Position numbers and translations under genes: made by a program. Below, piece after piece: positions 43,326-57,886 of a stretch of DNA of 58,011 nucleotides; the first letter of the stretch is position 1; the number at the start of each line of letters is the position of its first letter. The stretch comes from Thermodesulfovibrionales bacterium (GTDB lineage Bacteria; Nitrospirota; Thermodesulfovibrionia; Thermodesulfovibrionales; JdFR-86), in NCBI GenBank assembly GCA_030682405.1, contig JAUXOF010000041.1, positions 1 to 58,011 on the forward strand, in the 5' to 3' direction. Below the pieces are notes generated by a model, which did no database searches, was not told the DNA's origin, and worked only from the letters and a program-made list of their open reading frames with translations.

Positions 43326-45812
43326 TTAAACCGCCAGCCCCTGTATCACCTTGAATGCCTCGCAGGTCATGCAGTTTTTGATTTTGGAGCGCGCATCGCC
43401 CTGCTGGACGCCCTTGCACCATGTGCCGGTTATGAGCCAGCACCTGTCCTCTGTAGATTTGTAGGCCGGGCACTTCTGCCTTGCGGTATCCGGGCAGCGG
43501 AGTAGTTCCCAGCATTTCTGGTTTCCGTTTGTGTGGATTCTGAAGTTGCTTATGATGTACTGGAGGTTCTCTATCTGAAACAGGGTGTCGTCCGCCGTGG
43601 TCTTCATCTCGCCCGAAAGCTTGAGGTTCTCCGTGGCTATGTGGCTCATGCCCTCCATCGCCTTGACGATGGTCTCGCCGCCTAACTTCTGCTCCGCCGT
43701 GGCGTTTGCCACGTCCCGCGTCATGGTGTTCATCGTCTCCACGGACTGCGCTATCTGCCTTGCTCCGCCCACCTGCTCCTTGACCGCTATGCCCACCTCC
43801 TGCACTGCGGTCTTCATGCGCTCCACGGTCTCCCGTATCTGCTTGCCGCCTATCGCCTGCTCCTTGGTCGCAATGTTGACCTGCTGGACCTGCCTGTTCA
43901 TCTTCTCTATGGCGTTTCTGATGTTGCCCGTGCTTCCGGCTTGCGCCTTGACCGCGCCTGTGACCTCTTCGGTAGAGGAATTCATGTCCACAATGTACTT
44001 CATGACCTGACCCGTGGCCTTGTTCAGCTCGGCTGCGGACTTTGCGATGTCGTTCATTATCTCCGAGGTGTCTTTTACGACGGCTATTATGCCTGTGAAG
44101 GCATCCCTGCTTGATGCGGCAAGGGCCATGCCGCCTTTGCCCTCCCTATAAGTCTCCTCCGTTGCCTTAACCGCATTGGAGGTCTCAGCCTGAACCTGCT
44201 TTATGACCGAGCTTATCTCCTTAGTCGCCTCCATGGAGCGTTCGGCGAGCTTCCGTATCTCTTCGGCGACGACTGCAAACCCCCGTCCGGCGTCGCCGGC
44301 GCGGGCCGCCTCTATGGCCGCGTTCAAGGCGAGGAGGTTGGTCTGGTCGGCTATCTCGTCTATGACTTCCACGATTGAGCCTATCTCTTCGGAACGCTTG
44401 CCGAGGTTCTGGATGAGGGACATCGTCTTTTCCGTGGTATTGCCGATGTTCTGGAGGCTCTCTATGCTCTGGTATATGGCCTTCCCGCCGTCTTCGGCGT
44501 CCTTGAACGCATCCTGACTGAGTTTGTTTGCCGTGCCTATCTTGCCCGCCACTTCCGAAACGGTGCGCATCATCTCCTCTATGGTGCTTGAGGTCTCGGT
44601 CACCATGTGCTTAAGGGACTCTGTGTTTTTGGATATCTGCTCCACCGAGGCAAGGAGGTTTTCCACTGTCAACGAGGTCTCGTTGACGGAATCCGTCATC
44701 GCTCCAGTGTTCCTTGCGGTCTGGTCTATTGAGGAAAGCATCTGCTCTATGGTCGCGGAGGTCTCCTCTACGGAGGCGGCCATTATGTCCGCGTTCTTTC
44801 CGACCTGCTCTATGGAGGCGGCCATCTCGTTTATAGTGGCGGACGTCTCGTCCACGTTTGTCGCAAGGGCCTCGGCGTTCTTAGAGACCTGAGAGATGGA
44901 GACTGCCATCTCTTCCATCGAGGCCGTGGTCTCGTCCGTGGCAGCGGCCTCCTCCTGAGACGAGTTGGCTATGTGGACAGAGCCGGTTGAGACGTTCTCG
45001 GCGGACAGGGCAACGTGGTAAGTGGAATCCGCCGTCTGCTTTATCATGTCTCTGAGGCTCCGCACCACCCTGTTGAAGCCGTCCGCTATCTGGTTTATCT
45101 CGTGGCTGCCTTTTGCGGTAATCTCTGCGGTAAGGTTTCCGGTTTCAAGCTCCTTGACTGTCTTGAGCATGTCGTCTATGGGCGAGGTTATGCCCTTAGA
45201 TATGCCCCTTACGAAGAAGAACCCGCCGATAATGCAGAATATTATCAAAAAGGCCGTGAACCCCACGCCGATTACGTTTGCCCTATTGATGACGGCCTTC
45301 ATTCCGGCCTCCGTAGACCCCGAGTCCTTCTTTATTATCTCTTTCATCCTGTTCAGGCTTTCCTGAACAGAAGCGACCGAGGGGACAGTCTCTTCGAGAA
45401 ATACCTTGCGGGCATCCTCTTTGCGTCCTTCTTTCATTTTTGAGATTATCTTTTCCGCGGAGGCGTGAAGCCTCCTGTGGGGCTCGTCGAGCTTGTCGAA
45501 CGGTTCCTTCAACTCGGCGGAGTACGGCTTGAAGGTCCCCATCCACTTGCCGAGGTTGCATTTTTCCGGGTCAAGCTGGCCCTTGAATTCCTCGCCCTTG
45601 ATGAACATCCCTGAGGAAATCCCGTCCATCCACTTCAGGTGGTCCACGGTGCGTTCGGAAAAGAAGGCGTTCAGGTTGGCAAGCTCCATGGTCTCCTTCT
45701 CTATCCTTTCCACCTTTTTTGAGGACCAGTAAAAAATCCCTCCGAGGGCCGTTACCATGACGAGCGTAATCGCAAGCCCTATAGTGAGTTTCTTGCCTAT
45801 TGTAAGGTTCAT
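43326..45812 (-). CDS. methyl-accepting chemoreceptor: TM-CZB-TM-HAMP-extended MA domain-Cys-rich C-terminal module
   Basis: Hairpin [40 protein letters not shown]; DHLKW/CNLGKW/HRRLH CZB motifs between two TMs; C-terminal CW...CPA...CW domain. Confidence 0.93.
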
Positions 45813-45847
45813 GTCAGTTTCCTCCTGTCGGAAATATATTAATATCC

Positions 45848-46054
45848 CTAAATATTCTTATCCGTTACGACCCCTTTATAGAAATCGCAGTCCCTGCAGT
45901 TATGGATTTTCAGCGCATAAGTCCCCTGCACCTTGCCCCCGCACATCGTGCCCGCCACGAGATAGCAGACCCTGCCGCCCTTGGGGTAGGCGGGGCAGTC
46001 TCCGGTCGTGTCCTTGCCGCATTTCTTAAAGTCCCAGCAATTAATTTTTCCCAT
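45848..46054 (-). CDS. 68-aa free-standing 7-Cys ('two-CW'-type) protein
   Basis: SD GGAGGAGG; CWDFKKC...CPAY...CYLVAGTMC...CRDCDFY with the same spacing as the MCP and kinase modules. Confidence 0.85.
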
Positions 46055-46055
46055 T

Positions 46056-46577
46056 TTATGCCTCCTCCTCCTCCATTACTGCCGGCTTTTCCTTCCTCAG
46101 CAGTTTTTCGAGGTCAAGGAGTATGACAAGCCTGTTCGGGAGCTTGCAAACCCCTGTTATGTAGTCCGTATCCACTTCCAGCACCTCGTCCGGGGCCTCC
46201 TCTACGAACTCCCCTTTGACCTTCATCACATGGCTCACAGAGTCCACAAGGAGGCCGAGCACCTTGCCGTTTACCTCGGTTACCACTATCCTTGAGCTTT
46301 TCGTGATGCCCTCGTCGCTTATCCTCAGCTTTTTCCTCAGGTTAAGCACCGGGAGTATCTTTCCGCGCAGGTTAATCACCCCTTCCATGTACGCGGGCGA
46401 GTTCGGGACTACGGTCATGTTGCCGACCCTGATTATCTCCTGCACCTGATTGATAAGCACGCCGTACTCCTCCCCAAGGTTGAACGTCACGAGGTGCAGT
46501 TCTCCCTCGCGACCTCCGTTTCCCTGACCGAGGATGTCTTCGGCAAGACCCGAAGCCTGTAGATTGATTTCGCCCAT
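46056..46577 (-). CDS. cheW: chemotaxis coupling protein CheW
   Basis: LVTFNLG.EYGV...VPNSPAYMEGVINLRGKILPV...GLLVDSV. Confidence 0.95.
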   Translation of the reverse strand: MGEINLQASGLAEDILGQGNGGREGELHLVTFNLGEEYGVLINQVQEIIRVGNMTVVPNSPAYMEGVINLRGKILPVLNLRKKLRISDEGITKSSRIVVTEVNGKVLGLLVDSVSHVMKVKGEFVEEAPDEVLEVDTDYITGVCKLPNRLVILLDLEKLLRKEKPAVMEEEEA

Positions 46578-46579
46578 TT

Positions 46580-48232
46580 CTAACTCCTTTCCCCCTCAGG
46601 GGCCTTCTGTTGCCCGGCGCCGCTGTCCTTTGCGAGGCCGTTTCCGCTCCAGAAGGCGAGGGCGTCTATGATTAGCACTATCTTTCCGTTGCCGAGAATG
46701 GATGCCCCGACTATCCCGGCTGATTTCCCGAACGTGTCGTCAAGGGGTTTTATTACTATCTCCTGCTGGCCCCTCAGCCCGTCTACGGCGAGCGCGAGCC
46801 GCTTTTCCGCCTTCCTTACGACCACGAGGTAGAACTTTTTCCTCTTCGCGCCGCCGAGGTTGAAGAACCTGTTCATTCTGACAACGGGCAGCACTTGGTC
46901 CCTTAAGCGGATTACCTCGCGGTTGTTGACCATGTGTATGTCGCTCTCTTTCACCTTTACACTCTCGTCAACGGAGCTCATCGGTATTGCGTATATCTCG
47001 CCCGAGGACTCCGCCATGAGGGCGGGTATGATGGCAAGGCTCAGGGGAAGTTTAATGGTGAAAACGCTCCCCTTGCCGGAAACGCTTTCCACTGTCGTCT
47101 GTCCGTTCAGTCTGGATATGTTTCTGCTTACCACGTCAAGGCCGATGCCCCGGCCTGATATGTCCGAGGTCTCCTCCTTTGTGGTAAATCCCGGCATGAA
47201 GATAAAAGACATTAGGTCTTCCCTGCCCGGCAAGGCGTCCTCGCTTGAGAGGCCCCTCTCTATTGCCTTCCTCCGTATCTTTTCCGGGTCTATGCCCCTT
47301 CCGTCGTCCCTGACCCTTATGATTACGTAATTGGATTCCTGAGAGGCCGAAAGTATGATTTTGCCCTCAGGGCTTTTGCCCTTATTGATGCGTTCCGCCG
47401 GGGTCTCTATGCCGTGGTCTATGGCGTTTCTTATTATGTGAAGCAGGGGTTCGCCGAGTTCGTCAATGACGGTCTTGTCAAGCTCCGTGTCTTCGCCCTC
47501 AAAGGAGAGGACGACCTGCTTGCCCTGAGAGCGCGCTATGTCCATTACCATCCTTGGAAACTTGGAAAATACGACCTTCACCGGCAGCATCCGTATCTTC
47601 ATGATGCCTTCCTGAAGCTCGGATACCGTCTTGCCTATGAGTTGAAGCCCCTCATGCAGCTCATGTATGAGCGGCTTGGAGGCAAGGACGGGCTTTATCC
47701 TTTCCTCTATCTGGTTCATCCTCGTTTTGAAGATTACCAGCTCTCCGACCATGTTCAGAAGGTCGTCGAGCCTCTTGAAGTCCACCTTGATGGTGTCGGT
47801 CTTCGAGCCCATATACGCTTTAAGGGAGAGTGTCTTCTGTCCGGCGTCTTTTCCGTTTCCCTCGGCGGCATTCTTGAGGGAAAGTATGCCTTCGGCGAGG
47901 TCCGGATGGTTAGAGGGGTGTTCCTCTAAATGCGAAAGGGCGTCTCTTATGATGTTTGCGCTGTCAAGGAGCGTCTCCATTACTCCTTCAAGGGGTAACT
48001 TCTCTTCAACCACGGCCTTAAGGATGCCTTCGACCTGATGTATGTACGTCTTTAGGGACTCAAAGCCCATCATCCCGGAGTTCCCCTTAAGGGTGTGCAG
48101 CGAACCGAGGGTGTTCTGTATGAGGTCCCTGTCGAGGCCGTCGCGCTCTAAGGCCATCAGCGCGGCGTCGAATGCCCCGATGTGGACGTTGGCGTCGTCT
48201 ATGTAGTCTTTTATGAGCGCTGAGTAGTCCAA
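46580..48232 (-). CDS. cheA: chemotaxis histidine kinase CheA (Hpt-dimerisation-HATPase-CheW; no obvious P2)
   Basis: LHTLKGNSG (P1), TIKVDFKRLDDLLNMVGELVI, HIIRNAIDHGIE, DDGRGID, SGRGIGLDVV. Start placed at TTG 48232 to avoid a 59 bp overlap with cheY; uncertain. Confidence 0.93.
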   Translation of the reverse strand: MDYSALIKDYIDDANVHIGAFDAALMALERDGLDRDLIQNTLGSLHTLKGNSGMMGFESLKTYIHQVEGILKAVVEEKLPLEGVMETLLDSANIIRDALSHLEEHPSNHPDLAEGILSLKNAAEGNGKDAGQKTLSLKAYMGSKTDTIKVDFKRLDDLLNMVGELVIFKTRMNQIEERIKPVLASKPLIHELHEGLQLIGKTVSELQEGIMKIRMLPVKVVFSKFPRMVMDIARSQGKQVVLSFEGEDTELDKTVIDELGEPLLHIIRNAIDHGIETPAERINKGKSPEGKIILSASQESNYVIIRVRDDGRGIDPEKIRRKAIERGLSSEDALPGREDLMSFIFMPGFTTKEETSDISGRGIGLDVVSRNISRLNGQTTVESVSGKGSVFTIKLPLSLAIIPALMAESSGEIYAIPMSSVDESVKVKESDIHMVNNREVIRLRDQVLPVVRMNRFFNLGGAKRKKFYLVVVRKAEKRLALAVDGLRGQQEIVIKPLDDTFGKSAGIVGASILGNGKIVLIIDALAFWSGNGLAKDSGAGQQKAPEGERS

Positions 48233-48236
48233 TGCC

Positions 48237-48665
48237 TTATTTTGCCTGTAGGTGTTTAATGCCTGCCGCCATAAGAGGAGAGGGCTTTTTGGCAAGCACC
48301 TTCTCTATCAGGTCGTGGAGCACATCAGGCTTGAAGGGCTTAACCACATATCCCCATGCGCCTAACTTAAGCGCCCTCATCGTGTCGTCCTCCTTGCCCT
48401 CGGTGCTTATAACTATGATGGGGATGCCCTTATAAAGCCTGTCCGCCTTAATTTTTTCCATGAACTGCACGCCGTTCATTATGGGCATGTTTATGTCAAG
48501 GAGTATGAGTTCTATCCCGCCTTCCCTTGAGAGGATGTCGAGGGCTTCAAGGCCGTTCATGGCGTCAAGTATGGCGCAGTTTTTGTACCGGGTAAGTATC
48601 AGCCTGTACATCTGGTGGATAAGGTGTGAATCGTCGACTATTAATATCTTGTTCAGGGTAGACAT
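48237..48665 (-). CDS. cheY: single-domain response regulator CheY-like
   Basis: ILIVDDS, LLDINMPIMNG, IIVISTEG, YVVKPF; directly upstream of cheA. Confidence 0.85.
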   Translation of the reverse strand: MSTLNKILIVDDSHLIHQMYRLILTRYKNCAILDAMNGLEALDILSREGGIELILLDINMPIMNGVQFMEKIKADRLYKGIPIIVISTEGKEDDTMRALKLGAWGYVVKPFKPDVLHDLIEKVLAKKPSPLMAAGIKHLQAK

Positions 48666-48676
48666 TTGCCCTCCTT

Positions 48677-49060
48677 TTAGATGTCTTTTGATACTGCTAT
48701 ATCAAGCTCCTCAACCATTTTTATCAAGTCGTCCATGTCTATGGGTTTTTCAAAGTAATGGTAAGCGCCCCTTCTGCCGGCCTCTTCCTTCATCTCATCA
48801 GAGCCGTAAGCGGTCATTATAATCACCGCAGTCTCAGGGCTGATTTTCTTTACGTAGCTCAGGAGTTCAAGCCCTTCAATGCCGTCCACCCCGCTCAGCC
48901 TTATGTCAGCGATAACGAGGTCGAATTTGTATCTGACCAGCGCCTCTTCGGCCTCCTCGATTCTGCTGCTCGTTATTACAACGGTGTTCTCGTTGCTTAA
49001 GAGATGGGAAAGGGCCATCAGTATCACCGGCTCATCGTCAACCACTAAAATCTTTTTCAT
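48677..49060 (-). CDS. second single-domain response regulator
   Basis: ILVVDDE, ADIRL..VDG, IMTAYG, YFEKP. Confidence 0.85.
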   Translation of the reverse strand: MKKILVVDDEPVILMALSHLLSNENTVVITSSRIEEAEEALVRYKFDLVIADIRLSGVDGIEGLELLSYVKKISPETAVIIMTAYGSDEMKEEAGRRGAYHYFEKPIDMDDLIKMVEELDIAVSKDI

Positions 49061-49092
49061 GCTTTTTCCTCCGGGGAATTTTCCTATAAAAT

Positions 49093-49108
49093 AGCAAAAG
49101 AGATGCCA
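49093..49108 (-). promoter_or_regulatory. sigma54 (-24/-12) promoter of the chemosensory operon
   Basis: Minus strand TGGCAT-CTCTT-TTGCT (GG-N10-GC), 33 nt upstream of the first operon ATG and downstream of a sigma54 activator gene. Confidence 0.75.
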
Positions 49109-49224
49109 GAGCGGGAGGCGATGAAAGAGCCTGAAAATAAAGGATTGTTTATCTTCTGCCGGAGAGTGGCTGTTTTGTGCTGTATGAAGACAGGACGCCT
49201 CTGACCGATATTAGGACGGAAGCG

Positions 49225-50559
49225 TTAATGGCTCTGAATATCGTAGCCCTTCATCTTCTCTATAAGGGTTGACCGGGAAATTCCCATAATCTTTGCGGCC
49301 TTTGTCCGGTTGCCTGCCGTAGACTCAAGGACATTAAAGATATGAGAGCGCACAATATCTTCAATCTTTTGTCCTGCCCCTGCAATGGGCGGCGCTGCCG
49401 AAGGCGACGTGCCGCTTTTTAGCACTATATTTTCTGCGTTTATAACCCGTCCATGGGCCAGTATGGAGGCCCTTTCGATGATGTTTCTCAGTTCCCTGAT
49501 ATTGCCGGGCCAGTTGTAGGAGCAGAGGAGTTCCATCGCGCCTTTTTCAAACCCGGTGCGCTTCCTTCCGGTTGCGTTGTTTATCTCCATGAGGAAGAAC
49601 TCCGCAAGCAGGGGGATGTCTTCGGGCCGTTCCCTCAGAGGCGGTATTGTTACAGGCATTACGTTTAGCCTGTAATACAGGTCTTCTCTGAATGTCCCGT
49701 TCTTTACGGCCTGTTCGATGTCCTTGTTTGTGGCTGCAATGATTCTTACCTCAACCTTTATATCTCTGGTGCCGCCAAGCCGGCGGAAGGCCTTTGTCTC
49801 TATGACCCTGAGGAGTTTGCTCTGGGCGGCAAGGGGCATATCGCCTATCTCGTCAAGGAACAATGTGCCGTTGTCCGCAAGTTCAATCAGCCCCCTTTTT
49901 GCCGACTTTGCGTCCGTAAACGCCCCTGCCTCGTACCCGAACATTTCGCTTTCAATCATATTTTCCGGGATGGAGGCGCAGTTTATGTCAATGAAGGGAT
50001 TAGAGCCTTTTATGCTCTGAAAATGGATATTCCTTGCTACAAGCTCCTTGCCCGTCCCTGTCTCGCCCCGTATCAAGAGGGTTGTCGAGGGGTTTTCAGC
50101 CATGAGGTTAACCATGTGGATGAGTCCCTGCACAGCCCTGCCCCTTCCTATGATGAGGTATGGCGACTTCCTGCAGAAGGCCAGTTCCTGCCGCAGTTTT
50201 ATTATCTCGGAGCTCTTTTCGATTATAGCGCCGAGTTCATCGAGGTCTATGGGTTTCTGGAAATAGTTCTCGGCCCCGAGTTTGATGGCCTCTATGGCCT
50301 CGTTAATCTCCCCGAAGGCGGTCATTATATAGACGGCGGTTGACGGCGAGCCGGACTTTATCTCCTTCAGGATGTTCAGGCCGTAAGCGTCGGGAAGCCT
50401 GAGGTCAAGGAGGACTATGTCGGGCCGGTTCTTAAGCGCAGCATCAATCCCCTCTTCCCCTGTTTCCGCGGCCAGCACTTCGTAGTCCTTTGCTTCGAAA
50501 AAGACCTTAAGCGCAAGCCGTATGGACGGTTCATCCTCTATTAGAAGAATCCGCAGCAT
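49225..50559 (-). CDS. sigma54-dependent response regulator (NtrC/AtoC family)
   Basis: REC, Walker A GETGTGKE, ESEMFGYEAGAFTDA, LFLDEIG, FREDLYYRL, WPGNIREL, Fis HTH NRTKAAKIMGISRSTL. Confidence 0.95.
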   Translation of the reverse strand: MLRILLIEDEPSIRLALKVFFEAKDYEVLAAETGEEGIDAALKNRPDIVLLDLRLPDAYGLNILKEIKSGSPSTAVYIMTAFGEINEAIEAIKLGAENYFQKPIDLDELGAIIEKSSEIIKLRQELAFCRKSPYLIIGRGRAVQGLIHMVNLMAENPSTTLLIRGETGTGKELVARNIHFQSIKGSNPFIDINCASIPENMIESEMFGYEAGAFTDAKSAKRGLIELADNGTLFLDEIGDMPLAAQSKLLRVIETKAFRRLGGTRDIKVEVRIIAATNKDIEQAVKNGTFREDLYYRLNVMPVTIPPLRERPEDIPLLAEFFLMEINNATGRKRTGFEKGAMELLCSYNWPGNIRELRNIIERASILAHGRVINAENIVLKSGTSPSAAPPIAGAGQKIEDIVRSHIFNVLESTAGNRTKAAKIMGISRSTLIEKMKGYDIQSH

Positions 50560-50580: not shown

Positions 50581-51813
50581 CTATTTTTTCTTCAGGCCGA
50601 AGGCATCGTGAAGCGCCCTGACGGCAAGCTCGGTGTATTTTGCGTCTATCACGCATGAGACCTTTATCTCCGAAGTGCTTATCATTATGATATTGATGTT
50701 GTGCTTTGCCAGCGTTGCGAACATCTTGGCCGCCACCCCGGAGTGCGTCCTCATGCCGACTCCGATAATGGAAACCTTAGAGATGTCGTCCCTCAGAGCA
50801 ACGCCCTTTGCATTAAGCCCCTTTACAATCTTTTCGGTCAGGTTAAGCGCCTTTTTGCTGTCCGTCTTGGGCACGGTGAAGGAAATGTCCGTGGCCTTTC
50901 CGTCGGAGCTTACGTTCTGCACTATCATGTCCACGACGAGGTCTGCCTCTGCAATGGAACTGAAGAGCCTTGCCGCTATCCCCGGCCTGTCGGGCACTCC
51001 CATAACCGTAATCTTCGCCTGGTTTTTGTCGTATGCGATTCCGGATACCACAACATGTTCCATCTCCTCATCCTCCTTAATGACAACCGTTCCGGGGTTG
51101 TAGTTGAAGCTTGACCTGACGACAAGCGGGACATTGTACTTCTTGGCAAGCTCCACAGACCTCGTCTGAAGCACCTTGGCTCCGAGGCTTGCCAGTTCAA
51201 GCATCTCGTCATACGATATCCTGTCGAGCTTTCTGGCCTCTGGCACGATATTGGGGTCGGTCGTGTAAACGCCGTCAACATCCGTGTATATTTCGCAGGC
51301 GTCGGCTTTAAGCGCTGCGGCTACGGCAACTGCCGTGAGGTCTGAGCCGCCCCTGCCGAGGGTTGTTACATCGGAGGTTTCGGTTATGCCCTGAAAGCCC
51401 GCAATAACCGGGATTATTCCCTTTTTCACCGCCTCTTTCACCCTGCCGGCGGTAATCTTTTCTATCTTGGCCTTTGTATGAAGGGTGTCGGTTATAATCC
51501 CGACCTGCCTTCCTGTGAAGGCCATGGCCCGCTTGCCGAGTTCCTCCAAGGCCATTGCCGTAAGCGCGCTTGTGATGCGTTCGCCCGAGGAAAGCAGCAG
51601 GTCCATCTCCCTTTCCGGCGGGGACGATGAAACGCCGTTCGCAAGGGCTATGAGCTTGTCCGTCTCGCCGGACATGGCAGAGACGACGACCACTACGCCC
51701 TTGCCCTCATCGGCAGTCCTTGCAACCCTTTTTGCAACGGCCTTTATGCGTTCTATGTTTCCGACGGACGTGCCGCCGTACTTCTGAACGACCAGAATTT
51801 TGCGTGAAGCCAA
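50581..51813 (-). CDS. lysC: aspartate kinase
   Basis: [41 protein letters not shown], two ACT domains. Confidence 0.95.
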
Positions 51814-51817
51814 CCCC

Positions 51818-53029
51818 CTACCCCTCCTTCATAAAGTAGTCCATAAGCCTGAAACCCTCTTCTATCCTCACGATGTCGTCTCTTTCAGAGAGCGTCTCGT
51901 CAAACCGCGCGCCCTTGTTGTCTTTCTTTTGCCTGCTGTCGTAAAGGACAAACGGGACAGGCTCCTCAGTATGGGTCCTGGCCTCTACGGGAGTTGCGTG
52001 GTCAGGAAGCAGGAGGATTTTATACTCATCAAAGGGCTTGATGCCCCTCAGGACGGTTCCCACGACAAGGGCGTCAAAGTCCTCTATCGCCTTTATCTTG
52101 TCGTTACAATTGCCGGAATGCCCGGCCTCATCCGGCGCCTCCACGTGGATATACGCAAAGTCCACCCGTTCGAGGGCATTAAGCGAATACTCCGCCTTTC
52201 CCACATAGTTTGTATCGAGGTAGCCCGTAACTCCCGGCACCTTCAATATCTCAAGTCCCGCATAAATGCCGAGCCCTTTTGTGAGGTCTACTGCCGAGAC
52301 CATTACGCCCTTAATTCCGTATCTTTGGGTAAAGGACGGCAGGCTCGGTTTTTTGCCCTGCCCCCAGAGCCATATGCTGTTGGCCTGCCTCCTGCCGCTT
52401 TCAACCCTTTTCTTGTTTACCGGGTGAGCTTCAAGCACTCCGACGGAACGGAGCATCAAATCCCTGAGGGTTTCCTCGCCTTCTCCAACAGGGAGGTAGT
52501 CCGTGACCTCTTTATCAAGGATGTCGTGCGGCGGGGTGCATTCAGGGCCGAGCGAGCCGCCCGCCCAGACCATGAGGTGCCTGTAGCTTACGCCCGGATA
52601 AAATGTTATCTCCTCCGAGCCGAGCGATGCGTTCAACTCTTTAATCAGTTCTGCGGCCTCTCCGGTTGATATATGTCCGGCGCAGTAGTCTTTCATGTGC
52701 GCCCTTGCCATTTGTTTGTCATAGCCTAAAGTGACGAGGTTGCACCTGTAGGCCACATCTTTTTCTTTAAGCCCGACGCCCATGCTTGCGGCCTCAAAAG
52801 GCGCCCTGCCGGTATAGTACTGTGCAGGGTCGTATCCCAGTATGCTCAGGTTGGCCACGTCCGAGCCGGGGTGGAAGCCTTTCGGGATGGTCCTTACCAT
52901 GCCGATTGTGCCTTCTCTTGCGAGTTTGTCCATGTTGGGCGTGAAGGCCTTCTCAAGAGGGGTTTTACCGCCAAGTTCTTTTACCGGCCTGTCGGCCATC
53001 CCATCGCCAATCATGACGATATATTTCAT
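51818..53029 (-). CDS. apgM: cofactor-independent phosphoglycerate mutase family (ApgM-like; candidate homoserine kinase substitute)
   Basis: [31 protein letters not shown] metalloenzyme motifs; translationally coupled to thrC. Confidence 0.85.
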
Positions 53030-54093
53030 AATATCCTCTCAATTGCATCCTGAACAGTGCGCAGGACGGCCTTTACCTTCAGGGGCTTCTCTGTTACCTT
53101 AAACACGGTATCCGGATCCTTAAGCCCGTGGCCGGTGAGGGTGCAGACGACTTCGTCTCCGGGCTTGAGGAAGCCTTCTTTATGGAGTTTGATTACGCCT
53201 GCCAAAGAGGAGGCGGATGCAGGCTCGCAGAATATGCCTTCTTGAGAGGCTATCAGGCTGTAAGCCCGGAGTATCTCGTCGTCGGTGACAGCCTCTATCC
53301 TGCCGCCGGATTCGTCCCTTGCCGCTACAGCGCCTTTCCAGCTTGCCGGGTTCCCTATCCTGATGGCAGTGGCGATGGTCTCGGGTTTTTCCACAGGCCT
53401 TCCGAGCACAATGGGCGCTGCCCCTGCAGCCTGAAACCCGAGCATACGGGGAAGGGAAGACACCCTGCCTTTGTCCTTATATTCCTTATAGCCCATCCAG
53501 TAGGCGGTTATGTTCCCTGCGTTTCCAACGGGAAGGGCATGATACCTCGGCGCCCTGCCGAATTCGTCCGCCACCTCGAATGCGGCGGTCTTCTGCCCCT
53601 CAATCCTGAAGGGGTTTATGGAATTCACAAGGGTTATGGGATAAATCCCGACTATAGACTTTACTATGGAAAGGGCCTCGTCAAAATTGCCTTCAAGCTG
53701 GAGCACGCGGGCGCCGTGTATGAGGGCCTGTGCGAGCTTCCCGAAGGCTATCTTCCCTTCAGGTATCAATACTATGCACTTTATGCCCGCCCTTGCCGCA
53801 TATGCCGCTGCCGAGGCAGAGGTGTTTCCGGTAGATGCGCATATCACCGCGCTTGAGTCCGCCTCAAGCGCCTTTGATATGGCGAGGGACATGCCCCTGT
53901 CTTTGAACGAGCCTGTGGGGTTTGCGCCCTCGAATTTAAAATAAACGTCTATGCCGGGAAGTATCTCCTTGAGGTTTCTCGCCTTTATAAGAGGTGTATG
54001 GCCTTCCTTCAGCGTTATGACAGGGGTCTTTTCCGTAACCGGCAAAAACTCCTTGTACTGCTCGATTATGCCGCTCCAGATTAGTTCACTCAT
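53026..54093 (-). CDS. thrC: threonine synthase
   Basis: [66 protein letters not shown]. Confidence 0.93.
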
Positions 54094-54330
54094 TCACTCA
54101 ACTATGTCACCTTCTACAAGTTCCACCTCAACGCCCTGGTCGCGGAGATACTGTATGCCTTTTCCGAGGTTTTTTTCTTCGCCCTCAAGTTCAAGCACCA
54201 TCTCGCCCACTGTTTCGGTAACCCTTGCCCTTCTGATGTTAGGCATCACATCAAATTTCTTGGCCATTGCAAATATCACAGGCTCCTTTATGAGATGCTG
54301 CGGAAAAGTAAGCTTAACCCTTTTTTTCAT
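54094..54330 (-). CDS. stand-alone NIL-domain protein
   Basis: VKLTFP..LIKEPVI...FDVMPNIRRARV....GEMVLELEG......GIQYLRDQGVEVE is the NIL (ACT-like) pattern. Confidence 0.85.
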   Translation of the reverse strand: MKKRVKLTFPQHLIKEPVIFAMAKKFDVMPNIRRARVTETVGEMVLELEGEEKNLGKGIQYLRDQGVEVELVEGDIVE

Positions 54331-54339
54331 CTATCCTCC

Positions 54340-54663
54340 TTAGTGATTTTCCACGAAAAGAAGGTTCGCAACCCCTTCCCGTGGGGGTTCGCAACCCCCG
54401 GCGATGGCAGGGACTATCGAGACCTCGTCGCCGTCTTTTACCTCGGTCTGCTCCGCCTTGAGAAATCTTATGTCTTCCTCGTTGACATAGATATTGACGA
54501 ACCTTCGTATCTTGCCCCCTTCGGACAGCCTTTCGCCTATTCCTGGGAACTTAGCTTCAAGGTCGTTTAGAAGGCCTATCACCGTTCCCGGCTTGCCCTC
54601 GACCTCCTCTTTCCCCTCTGTAAGCCGCTGAAGCGGACTCGGAATCTTTACCTTCACAGCCAT
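54340..54663 (-). CDS. MoaD/ThiS/CysO-family ubiquitin-like sulfur carrier with 17-aa extension after GG
   Basis: VKVKIPSPL...RRFVNIYVNEEDIRFL...DGDEVSIVPAIAGG then CEPPREGVANLLFVENH*. Confidence 0.9.
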   Translation of the reverse strand: MAVKVKIPSPLQRLTEGKEEVEGKPGTVIGLLNDLEAKFPGIGERLSEGGKIRRFVNIYVNEEDIRFLKAEQTEVKDGDEVSIVPAIAGGCEPPREGVANLLFVENH

Positions 54664-54704: not shown

Positions 54705-55940
54705 TTAAGTTTTAAGCCCCTTAAGCACATCTTCGAACGATGCAAGGTTTGCCTTTATATGATGCACGCTTGCCATATGCCCTGAAAGGGCCTCCTGTGT
54801 CTTAAGCCCGTTGCCGGTTATACAGAGCACAATGCTTTCGTCCCTTGATATTTTACCGGTTTCGATGAGCTTTTTTGCGCAGGCCAAAGTGACGCCCCCT
54901 GCGGTTTCGGCAAACACGCCCTCGGTTTTTGCAAGGAGTTTAATCGCATCTATTATCTCCCTGTCGGAGACGTCCTCGGCATACCCGCCGCTTTCCCTCA
55001 TGGCCTGAAGCGCATAGAAGCCGTCTGCGGGGTTTCCTATGGCAAGGGACTTTGCCACGGTGTCTGGCTTGACCGGCCTTATGACGTCCGTGCCCTGCTT
55101 CATTGCAGCCGCTATGGGAGAACATCCTGTCGCCTGCGCTCCGAAGAGCTTTGTCGGAAGCTCCTTGATTATCCCTATCTCCTTAAATTCCTTGAAACTC
55201 TTCCATATCTTTGTAAGGAGCGAGCCGCTTGCGCACGGCACTACGATGTTGTCCGGCGCCTTCCAGCCCAACTGCTCCGCTATCTCAAAGCCCTGCGTTT
55301 TAGAACCCTCGGCATAGAAGGGCCTGATGTTGATATTTACAAAAGCCCATTTGTATTTATTGGCTATCTCGCTACAGAGCCTGTTGACGTCGTCGTAACT
55401 GCCGTCCACTGCCAAGAGGTTCGGCTCATATACAAGGGATGCCACTATCTTGCTCGGCTCAAGCGTGGCCGGAATGAATATGAACCTTTTGAAACCCGCC
55501 CTTGCGCCGTGGGCTGAGACCGCCTGCGCAAGATTGCCGGTGGATGCACAGGCCACGGTGTCAAAGCCGAACTCCTTTGCCTTTGTCAGGGCAACGGCAA
55601 CGACCCTGTCCTTAAAAGAGAGTGTGGGGTGGACTACTGTATCGTCCTTTATATAAAGCTCGTTGACACCGAGTTCCTTTGCGAGGTTTTCGGCCTTAAG
55701 AAGCGGCGTGCAGCCGGATTCAAGCCCGACCTGCGGCTCGCCGTCTATGGGCAGAAGCTCCTTGTAGCGCCAGAGGTTTTGTTCTCTCTTCTCTATATTC
55801 TTTTTTGTAAGGACCTTTTTTATTCCTTTATAGTCGTAAACGACCTCAAGCGGGCCGAAACAGAACTCGCATACGTAAACCGGCTCTACGGCGTAATCCC
55901 TGCCGCACTCCCTGCATTTTAAGCCTGTTACATAGCCCAA
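54705..55940 (-). CDS. second threonine-synthase-like PLP enzyme with N-terminal Zn ribbon (candidate sulfur-carrier-dependent sulfhydrylase)
   Basis: CRECG...CEFC, PTLSFKDR, CASTGNLA, FYAEGSKT, VAKSLAIGNPADG, TGNGLKT; TTG 55940 is 8 nt after GGAGG. Confidence 0.85.
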   Translation of the reverse strand: MGYVTGLKCRECGRDYAVEPVYVCEFCFGPLEVVYDYKGIKKVLTKKNIEKREQNLWRYKELLPIDGEPQVGLESGCTPLLKAENLAKELGVNELYIKDDTVVHPTLSFKDRVVAVALTKAKEFGFDTVACASTGNLAQAVSAHGARAGFKRFIFIPATLEPSKIVASLVYEPNLLAVDGSYDDVNRLCSEIANKYKWAFVNINIRPFYAEGSKTQGFEIAEQLGWKAPDNIVVPCASGSLLTKIWKSFKEFKEIGIIKELPTKLFGAQATGCSPIAAAMKQGTDVIRPVKPDTVAKSLAIGNPADGFYALQAMRESGGYAEDVSDREIIDAIKLLAKTEGVFAETAGGVTLACAKKLIETGKISRDESIVLCITGNGLKTQEALSGHMASVHHIKANLASFEDVLKGLKT

Positions 55941-55976
55941 CCCTCTCACCTCCATAGGACTAAAGTGTTGTATGTT

Positions 55977-56058: not shown

Positions 56059-56490
56059 TTAAACCGGCACTATCGTTATTTCCCTTATCCCCGCCTTCCC
56101 TATTAGTAGAAACGCCTTTATCTCCGGCCCGCCCTCTGCAAGCCCGATTATCACATAGGCCGTGCCGGGGAAATTCTCATAATCGGTTCCGGGGAAGAAT
56201 GCCCGATTTATGTCTATTTGCGAAGGGTAGGCAGGCGAGGCCGGGTGCGAGTGGTATATGGCGAGCATCTTTTTACCGTCTTTCTCTATATCCCTCATCA
56301 CGTTTAGTTGCTCGTCCGGGTGCATCATGTATGTTGTGGAAGACAAGTCCGCATTCCTCATCCTATGAAGTTTCTCAACAGCATCCCCGCTTCCGGAAAG
56401 TATGCCGCAGGCCTCTTTAGGGTATGCCCCTTTTGCGTGGGCCACCATCTCGTCTATTATTGCCTTCGGGATAGAAAGCGCTTGCATCAC
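56059..56490 (-). CDS. JAB/MPN (Mov34, Mec-like) metallopeptidase
   Basis: KEACG...IYHSHPASPAYPSQID is the JAMM motif. Confidence 0.92.
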   Translation of the reverse strand: MMQALSIPKAIIDEMVAHAKGAYPKEACGILSGSGDAVEKLHRMRNADLSSTTYMMHPDEQLNVMRDIEKDGKKMLAIYHSHPASPAYPSQIDINRAFFPGTDYENFPGTAYVIIGLAEGGPEIKAFLLIGKAGIREITIVPV

Positions 56491-57293
56491 CGGCGTATGG
56501 AGCAGTAACCGGCCTCGTAATCAAGAAGCTCCGTAATGGTGGGGTTTTCGCCGCAGACGGGACATGCGGGATTTTTCGGCACCTTTACCTTCCTGAAGGT
56601 CGTTTGAAGCCCGTTGTATATCAGAAGCTCGCTTTTAAGCACGTCCCCTTTGCCCAATATCAGCTTTAATACCTCGGCGGCCTCAAGCGAGCCTATTACG
56701 CCCGGAAGCACCCCTAAGACCCCGGCCTCCTGGCACGAAGGCACAAGCCCGGCAGGCGGAGGCTCCTCAAACAGGCATCTGTAGCAGTGCCCCTCATGCG
56801 GGACGATGGTTGTCACCTGCCCTTCAAATTTCAGGATAGCTCCGCTTACAAGGGTTTTTTTGAGCATCACGCATGCGTCGTTTACAAGATACCTTGTCGG
56901 GAAATTGTCGCTTCCGTCAACCACTATGTCGTAGTCCTTCATTATGTCCAGAATATTGTCCCTTGTGAGTTTTCCCTTTATGGCGTTTATGGTCACATCC
57001 GGGTTCAGGGCGCTGAAGGTCTCTTTTGCGGACTCCACCTTGGGTCTTCCGAGGCTCTTTACGCTGTGGGCTATCTGCCGCTGGAGGTTGCTGAGTTCAA
57101 CCGTGTCGTTGTCTACAATCCCTATGGTGCCCACCCCTGCGGCAGTGAGATAAAACCCCACAGGGCATCCGAGCCCGCCCGCGCCGACGATGAGGACCTT
57201 TGCGGAAAGGAGCTTCCTCTGCCCTTTTCCGCCGACCTCAGGCAGTATGATGTGCCTTGAGTATCTCTGGAGCTGTTCCTCTGTGAATTCCAC
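56487..57293 (-). CDS. MoeB/ThiF-family (E1-like) adenylyltransferase, no rhodanese domain
   Basis: QRYSRHIIL, GAGGLG, SNLQRQ, DGSDNFPTRYLVND, CYRCLF, SCQEAGVLG, CPVCG. Confidence 0.92.
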   Translation of the reverse strand: MEFTEEQLQRYSRHIILPEVGGKGQRKLLSAKVLIVGAGGLGCPVGFYLTAAGVGTIGIVDNDTVELSNLQRQIAHSVKSLGRPKVESAKETFSALNPDVTINAIKGKLTRDNILDIMKDYDIVVDGSDNFPTRYLVNDACVMLKKTLVSGAILKFEGQVTTIVPHEGHCYRCLFEEPPPAGLVPSCQEAGVLGVLPGVIGSLEAAEVLKLILGKGDVLKSELLIYNGLQTTFRKVKVPKNPACPVCGENPTITELLDYEAGYCSIRR

Positions 57294-57538
57294 TAATCCT
57301 TTTCCTTTCTTATAAGGAGCACCCAGTCCGTCTCGTTTACCTTCTCCACCTTGAGCACCTTCTGCCCGTGGTCTTCCATGGACTTAGGGATGCTCGTCGC
57401 CGCAACGGGATAATCAAGCACTATCTCAAGCACTTGCCCAACCTCCATGTCTTCTATCGCCAGCTTCGCCTTGACAAAGGTATAAGGGCAGACGAGGCCC
57501 CTGATGTCTATGGACTTATCCGGCTTGACGCCGCCCAT
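57293..57538 (-). CDS. tusA: TusA/SirA-family sulfurtransferase
   Basis: IDIRGLVCPYTFVKAK...GQVLEIVLD; TAGTG overlap with the moeB-like gene. Confidence 0.88.
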   Translation of the reverse strand: MGGVKPDKSIDIRGLVCPYTFVKAKLAIEDMEVGQVLEIVLDYPVAATSIPKSMEDHGQKVLKVEKVNETDWVLLIRKEKD

Positions 57539-57611: not shown

Positions 57612-57677
57612 TTGGAGGACGGCGAAACTGTTCATAATGCTTTCTTTGATAGAAACTTTAAGGAGGAAGGAAAATGA
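57612..57677 (+). pseudogene. 3' remnant of a small toxin-like gene that normally precedes DUF2283 genes
   Basis: LEDGETVHNAFFDRNFKEEGK* with ATGA coupling to the next gene; in-frame stop at 57594 upstream and no N-terminus. Confidence 0.6.
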
Positions 57678-57886
57678 AAATTCGGTATTTTTCAGATACA
57701 GATACAGCGTTGATTGAGTTTTCAAGTGTTCCTGTAGTTGAGACAAAGGAAATATCAGAAAACCTATACATTGACTTGGATGAAAAGGGCAATCTTGTAA
57801 GCATGACTATTGAGCATGCGAAAGAGAAAGCGAGTATTTCAGAAGTTTCTTTTTTACAGATGGAAAAAACGATGATGTCCCTGTAA
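57674..57886 (+). CDS. DUF2283-family protein (putative antitoxin)
   Basis: MKIRYFSDTDTALIEF...ISENLYIDLDEKGNLVSMTIEHA. Confidence 0.85.
   Translation: MKIRYFSDTDTALIEFSSVPVVETKEISENLYIDLDEKGNLVSMTIEHAKEKASISEVSFLQMEKTMMSL

Follow-up and report, generated by a model that had tools for sequence, protein, structure and literature searches.

Why should a sulfur carrier be translated with additional residues behind the Gly-Gly motif that is invariant in its family? This question is raised by an open reading frame at 54340-54663 (-) of the window, by which we mean the whole stretch of 58,011 nucleotides analysed here (genome G000). The frame encodes a 90-residue ThiS/MoaD core ending in IAGG, followed by a 17-residue tail, CEPPREGVANLLFVENH, and a TAA stop, and Gly89-Gly90 is masked by this tail in the primary product.

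54394..54663 (-): sulfur-carrier core, 90 residues, beta-grasp, CysO/MetO-like; ends in Gly89-Gly90 (codons 54399-54394)
54343..54393 (-): 17-codon tail after Gly-Gly, unconserved; first residue Cys (TGC, 54393-54391)
54340..54342 (-): TAA stop codon of the carrier, then the GGAGG ribosome-binding site of the NIL gene

The core matches PF02597 over residues 5-90 (E 3e-17, 63 bits, cut-off 22.5) and retains all family-invariant residues (48 invariant columns across 26 homologues). In the AlphaFold model a beta-grasp core is followed by a disordered tail (pLDDT <50 for residues 88-107). The fold is closest to CysO, which provides the top Foldseek matches (4n6e_B/3dwg_C; E ~2e-10, 47-48% identity). 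CysO of Mycobacterium tuberculosis itself ends at Gly-Gly, and Mec releases its product.

The 17-residue tail after IAGG, first noted in a preliminary description of the locus, follows directly from the translation and is found again in a second assembly. Across the 2652 bases that the Logan assembly L031 (run SRR13727541) has in common with the window, only the second base of its contig differs, and the encoded tail is identical. As the sequence confirms, the codon after Gly-Gly is TGC (54393-54391), one base away from TGA, and a sequencing or assembly error turning TGA into TGC had been considered. L031 displays the same bases at this codon, albeit possibly from reads shared with this genome. 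A near relative from a different sample (P0121, see below) has a related tail that starts with the same residues, and TGC is a constant element of a repeat present in 30 copies. Given the related tail from a different sample, an assembly error is very unlikely, and we regard its chance as negligible. A stable regulatory RNA at the tail was also rejected, as the predicted fold of this region is no more stable than that of shuffled sequences (z -0.47) and Rfam gave no credible match there.

The DNA encoding the tail indeed contains the two elements initially described, a 13-bp direct repeat (54363-54375 and 54386-54398, spaced by 23 bp) and a GGGGGTT/AACCCCC hairpin whose 7-bp arms occupy 54383-54389 and 54393-54399. 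Read on the coding strand, the two Gly codons and the T of TGC make up the first of these arms.

54383..54399 (no strand): repeat unit 1, 7-bp hairpin, containing the 13-mer 54386-54398; member of a genome-wide family
54360..54382 (no strand): repeat unit 2, containing the 13-mer 54363-54375; 23 bp from unit 1, which is not a multiple of three

The 2.0-Mb genome contains 10 exact copies of the 13-mer (0.04 expected by chance) and a somewhat relaxed form of it 37 times at 30 sites. The core pattern of the repeat was counted 30 times in G000, five times in G009 and 0-1 times in 39 other genomes. Its units measure 19-23 bp and stand singly or in arrays of two to three. Many copies lie within coding DNA, and at least 10 unrelated proteins contain the translated repeat, either internally or terminally, with both strands and several reading frames represented. 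The repeat adds seven residues in frame to a DegT aminotransferase compared with four of five orthologues (six compared with the fifth), and it extends the C-terminus of PdxA by a segment that is absent from the orthologues. Sites in AddB-like, MurE, SpeE-like and GGR-like proteins fall into variable loops and are less clear as insertions; further copies are found at the ends of SMC, an ADP-forming acyl-CoA ligase and a thioredoxin reductase-like (TrxB-like) protein. In the tandem pair that lies within a coding region the spacing is 21 bp, which preserves the frame, whereas it is 23 bp for the pair in the carrier tail.

Translated repeat sites in G000 (loci L113-L122), set 1: C41 9529; C62 57788; C9 3942, 5549; C84 4498; C52 38320
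Translated repeat sites in G000, set 2: C85 9943; C25 47759-47792; C68 17949-17982, 42515; C56 12142

As judged from these sequences, the carrier tail is derived from a lineage-specific hairpin repeat. Since TGC forms the loop of the repeat, it is not a relic of the carrier's own stop, and the suggestion of a recent stop-loss does not hold: the codon belongs to a repeat present at about 30 sites, and tails are already usual in the order. The repeat resembles two known types of element. Rickettsia palindromic elements are palindromic, dispersed and often translated in unrelated proteins (PMC10969869), and very small dispersed repeats of cyanobacteria are summarized as palindromic, lineage-specific, dispersed and often translated (Elhai et al. 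2008, as cited in PMC3116915). Likewise, the repeat described here is palindromic, lineage-specific, dispersed and translated in unrelated proteins, but it is much shorter than the Rickettsia elements (~21 versus ~150 bp) and occurs in 1-3 tandem units. REP/REPIN elements mobilized by a RAYT enzyme were considered and rejected: the Y1/RAYT transposase (PF01797) was not found in G000, nor was any other mobilizing enzyme, and many copies are intragenic rather than mostly extragenic. Two viral matches to the repeat proved to be single, unrelated hairpins. We also observed two repeat units at C70 8816-8849 (L124), just upstream of a thiS gene that encodes a product with a free Gly-Gly end.

The carrier gene is part of an operon with the order tusA, moeB, JAB, ThrC-like PLP enzyme, carrier, NIL, thrC, ApgM/HomK-type kinase and aspartate kinase.

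57293..57538 (-): TusA-type sulfurtransferase (PF01206)
56487..57293 (-): MoeB/ThiF-type adenylating enzyme (PF00899)
56059..56490 (-): JAB/JAMM metalloprotease, motif intact (PF14464, E 2e-22; E26, H80, H82, S90, D93)
54705..55955 (-): second threonine-synthase-like PLP enzyme, 416 residues, candidate MetM-type homocysteine synthase (PF00291; PRK08197 over cut-off)
54094..54330 (-): stand-alone NIL-domain protein, conserved in position as downstream neighbour of the carrier (PF09383)
50581..54093 (-): threonine synthase, ApgM/HomK-type proposed homoserine kinase and aspartate kinase (TIGR00260, TIGR02535 and PRK06635, over cut-offs)

The protease carries the complete E-x(n)-H[ST]H-x7-S-x2-D motif and is the only strong JAB in the genome (one match at E <1e-12). 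Its gene is not adjacent to that of the carrier, as had been assumed, but lies two genes upstream, with the 416-residue ThrC-like gene in between. In nearly all relatives this ThrC-like gene directly precedes the carrier and is present besides a canonical thrC; the named relatives are Thermodesulfovibrionales. The three genes at 50581..54093 are proposed to form the branch that makes O-phosphohomoserine.

In its layout the operon corresponds to the MetM/MetO route to homocysteine known from Streptomyces. For Streptomyces albulus, a thiocarboxylate route with MetM/MetO, Mec and MoeZ is reported, in which Mec is needed to mature MetO (Hasebe et al. 2024 via GapMind 2026, PMC13759103, 10.1101/2024.10.14.618325). 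Both loci have a threonine-synthase-like enzyme directly followed by the carrier, a JAB and an E1-like activator, a likeness in gene layout. Here, in contrast to S. albulus, MoeB and TusA replace MoeZ, a NIL gene is present and the tails differ from genome to genome. A cyanobacterial homologue behaved ambiguously (PMC12172450). The carrier is of the CysO/MetO type, and from the operon we infer that it serves a MetM-like synthesis of homocysteine. Neither MetX nor an enzyme of the MetY/MetZ/MetB type was found in the 99.8% complete genome, which contains only weak partial PF01053 matches, and therefore a working carrier is probably needed. HcyS of Wolinella succinogenes, which bears one extra Ala and is cut after Gly-Gly by its own JAB, HcyD, works with MetY; in this respect the present system, for which MetY was not found, differs from it.

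Alignment of orthologues, the check proposed at the outset, demonstrates that tails predominate in the order. They are present in 35 of the 39 carrier-bearing genomes including G000 (34 of 38 relatives, the other four stopping at Gly-Gly), in 112 of 120 database homologues and at 56 of 61 Nitrospirota loci; these three sets overlap. Among the database homologues the tails span 1-32 residues (median 4) and share no sequence, and identity between homologues drops from 84% in the core to 9% in the first five tail residues. With 17 residues the tail is not exceptionally long, contrary to the first impression, since 13 of 179 distinct tails are at least as long, and a 10-residue tail has been published for CxnE (PMC5925218). 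Particularly informative is P0121, whose core is identical at 85 of 90 residues (94%) but whose tail comprises 29 residues. The last 23 of these match the +1 frame of the window DNA at 18 positions. Read from the protein, P0121 thus appears to contain one more 23-bp repeat unit, with a different frame and stop. A functional tail peptide would not survive such a change of frame and the extra unit.

These data bear on the idea of a dedicated pro-peptide, selected to keep the carrier off until JAB is switched on. About 90% of the operon carriers are tailed, compared with 10 of 38 ThiS proteins in the same genomes, and so high a share could mean that masking itself is favoured, for instance against stray adenylation. 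Beyond this share, nothing speaks positively for a regulatory switch. No conservation of length, sequence or frame was found, such as would mark a regulatory pro-peptide: tails range from 1 to 32 residues with unconserved sequence, the reading frame differs between near relatives and 4 of 39 genomes do without a tail. Moreover, many genomes encode JAB and the carrier within a single operon, which gives no sign of separate control. A checkpoint function is therefore unlikely, and the maturation switch put forward in the preliminary description is not supported, in view of the variability of the tails and the change of frame in P0121.

Conversely, the insertion might have inactivated the carrier in this lineage, which would then live on imported methionine. 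The tail is longer than most, it has Pro-Pro at positions 3-4, and canonical MetH was not found. Nevertheless, the core with all family-invariant residues and the whole operon are intact, the tail is kept in a second lineage (P0121) and no other homocysteine route was found. MetH was not found in any of the 41 genomes of the order that were searched, G000 included, and a homologue of a weakly MetE-like 335-residue protein of the relatives is present in G000. Inactivation is hence distinctly improbable. The 335-residue protein, recognized in relatives by a weak match to the C-terminal part of MetE, is a candidate core methionine synthase; its homologue in G000 is split over two contig ends (C52 3-680 (-) and C44 1-324 (+)).

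Several unrelated hairpins and short tandem repeats were also observed directly after the carrier Gly-Gly in various relatives (L007, L008, L009, L014, L034, L037, L064, L069, L073, L240, L244-L251), which makes the junction look like a site where small repeats generally tend to land. A search of metagenome contigs for near relatives of the junction returned three chance matches to unrelated DNA.

The distribution of JAB bears on the fate of the tail. Of 41 genomes of the order, 39 contain both the carrier and a strong JAB, and neither was found in the other two, G001 and G033. In a clade around the Verrucomicrobiota genome G088, the same thrC-carrier-NIL module is common (41 genomes), no JAB scores better than E 2e-10, compared with <=1e-17 for the operon JABs, and all 41 parsed carriers end exactly at Gly-Gly. 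As no Mec-like JAB was found in this clade, product release must be JAB-independent there. Relatives of G088 (L204-L233) usually encode two carrier paralogues, ending in FAGG and IAGG. In a JAB-bearing Omnitrophota clade, 22 of 30 carriers are tailed and one is fused to NIL. The link between JAB and tails is thus based on three clades, two with JAB and one without, whose members are not independent of each other. JABs were identified by a search with the JAB family, because tblastn with the JAB from the window missed divergent members within the loci.

Random tails would also suit an unspecific protease, and a general tail-trimming or carboxypeptidase could do the work instead of JAB. Three tailed carriers were indeed observed in Omnitrophota genomes without a detected JAB (G146, G158 and G086), but these genomes are small (1.3-1.4 Mb) and fragmented, and in G146 and G158 the contig ends just upstream of the carrier, where relatives keep JAB. 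Together with the strict co-occurrence of carrier and JAB and the complete lack of tails in the clade without a Mec-like JAB, this renders a general peptidase highly improbable. Trimming by JAB is also in line with characterized systems. In thioquinolobactin synthesis, the JAMM protease QbsD removes Cys-Phe after Gly-Gly of QbsE before adenylation, and CxnF is proposed to remove the 10-residue tail of CxnE in the chuangxinmycin pathway (PMC5925218). Both enzymes share the JAMM motif with the JAB described here, but QbsE and CxnE are single examples from secondary metabolism, and random, repeat-derived or lineage-wide variable tails were not reported for them (PMC5925218).

The first tail residue is the only one that looks constrained across the sequences, as expected for a cleavage site. 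Among the 179 distinct tails, none begins with Pro, Trp or Tyr. Pro accounts for 4.6% of residues elsewhere in the tails, and Trp and Tyr codons are one base from a stop, yet they never come first. Cys (as in the present carrier), Ser, Ala or Gly occupies the position in 54% of the tails. Such a bias is what selection for cleavability would leave.

Tails are not restricted to the operon carrier. ThiS proteins of the Nitrospirota genomes comprise 27 with a free end, 10 with a tail and one fused to ThiG (n=38), and two MoaD genes encode 3-residue tails (tailed ThiS/MoaD loci: L153, L158, L159, L169, L171-L174, L195, L201, L202, L203). These short, unconserved tails in JAB-bearing genomes hint at a promiscuous JAB, and their lower frequency suggests that its action on other carriers may be weaker. 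Separately, two fusions in JAB-bearing genomes, carrier-NIL in an Omnitrophota relative (L262) and ThiS-ThiG in G017 (L157), place Gly-Gly internally, so that the same cut would be needed.

Considering these observations together, we propose that the tail is most likely neutral junk written by a repeat and removed by JAB in a MetM/MetO-like route, and that drift has made JAB indispensable. The gene would yield a carrier precursor that the operon JAB would cut after Gly90, the tail being discarded. MoeB would adenylate the new C-terminal end, with TusA-linked sulfur the adenylated end would become a thiocarboxylate, from which the ThrC-like enzyme most likely takes the sulfur to turn O-phosphohomoserine into homocysteine. 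As to its origin, a lineage-specific hairpin repeat would have landed on the Gly-Gly codons, changed its copy number and thereby written the tail. Because JAB would remove whatever follows Gly-Gly, stop-codon changes and insertions would cost little; owing to this low cost, tails could drift freely in JAB-bearing lineages until the protease was indispensable. The clade with free Gly-Gly and no detected JAB indicates that the pathway can run without the protease, and the Nitrospirota JAB is thus probably essential through drift.

Accepting this model, the two options initially opposed to each other, pro-peptide and tolerated insertion, are not exclusive: JAB is probably obligatory, as the first option demanded, but because of drifted junk tails and not as a switch. 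From the second option, the origin of the tail in a repeat stands, and trimming by JAB is the likely reason for its tolerance, given the co-occurrence in three clades; the adjective 'recent' does not.

A more far-reaching version is conceivable, although we have doubts about it. JAB might be almost blind to the tail and cleave the operon carrier, ThiS and MoaD behind Gly-Gly unless Pro or a bulky aromatic residue follows. By a neutral ratchet, stops would have drifted independently in Nitrospirota and Omnitrophota, selfish repeats would have colonized the junction and a dispensable protease would have become essential. If true, this would offer a bacterial, testable model of how ubiquitin-like precursors come to depend on processing, and possibly a small tag/protease pair.

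That JAB enzymes remove residues after Gly-Gly is already known, being published for QbsE, proposed for CxnE and reported for MetO, and the tail as such is ordinary. In the open-access literature searched, we found no paper on hypervariable carrier tails or their link to the presence of JAB. The added value lies in a natural experiment, with hundreds of random tails in the presence of JAB and none in a clade without a detected JAB. The tails amount to an existing library for the specificity of a bacterial JAMM protease, with selection visible only on the first tail residue, and the pattern would be a simple example of an enzyme rendered essential by drift. For annotation, it warns that in these phyla a carrier without a terminal Gly-Gly is probably still active. 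The analysis further brings to light a family of very small coding repeats in the genome.

Two further features flank the operon. Directly downstream of the aspartate kinase gene, a chemotaxis-like cluster (43326-50559 (-)) encodes an 828-residue receptor with a Cys/Trp-rich C-terminal end, CheW, CheA, two receivers and a sigma-54 activator. Upstream of tusA, on the opposite strand, an open reading frame of 70 residues (57674-57886 (+)) encodes a product that we take to resemble DUF2283 proteins.
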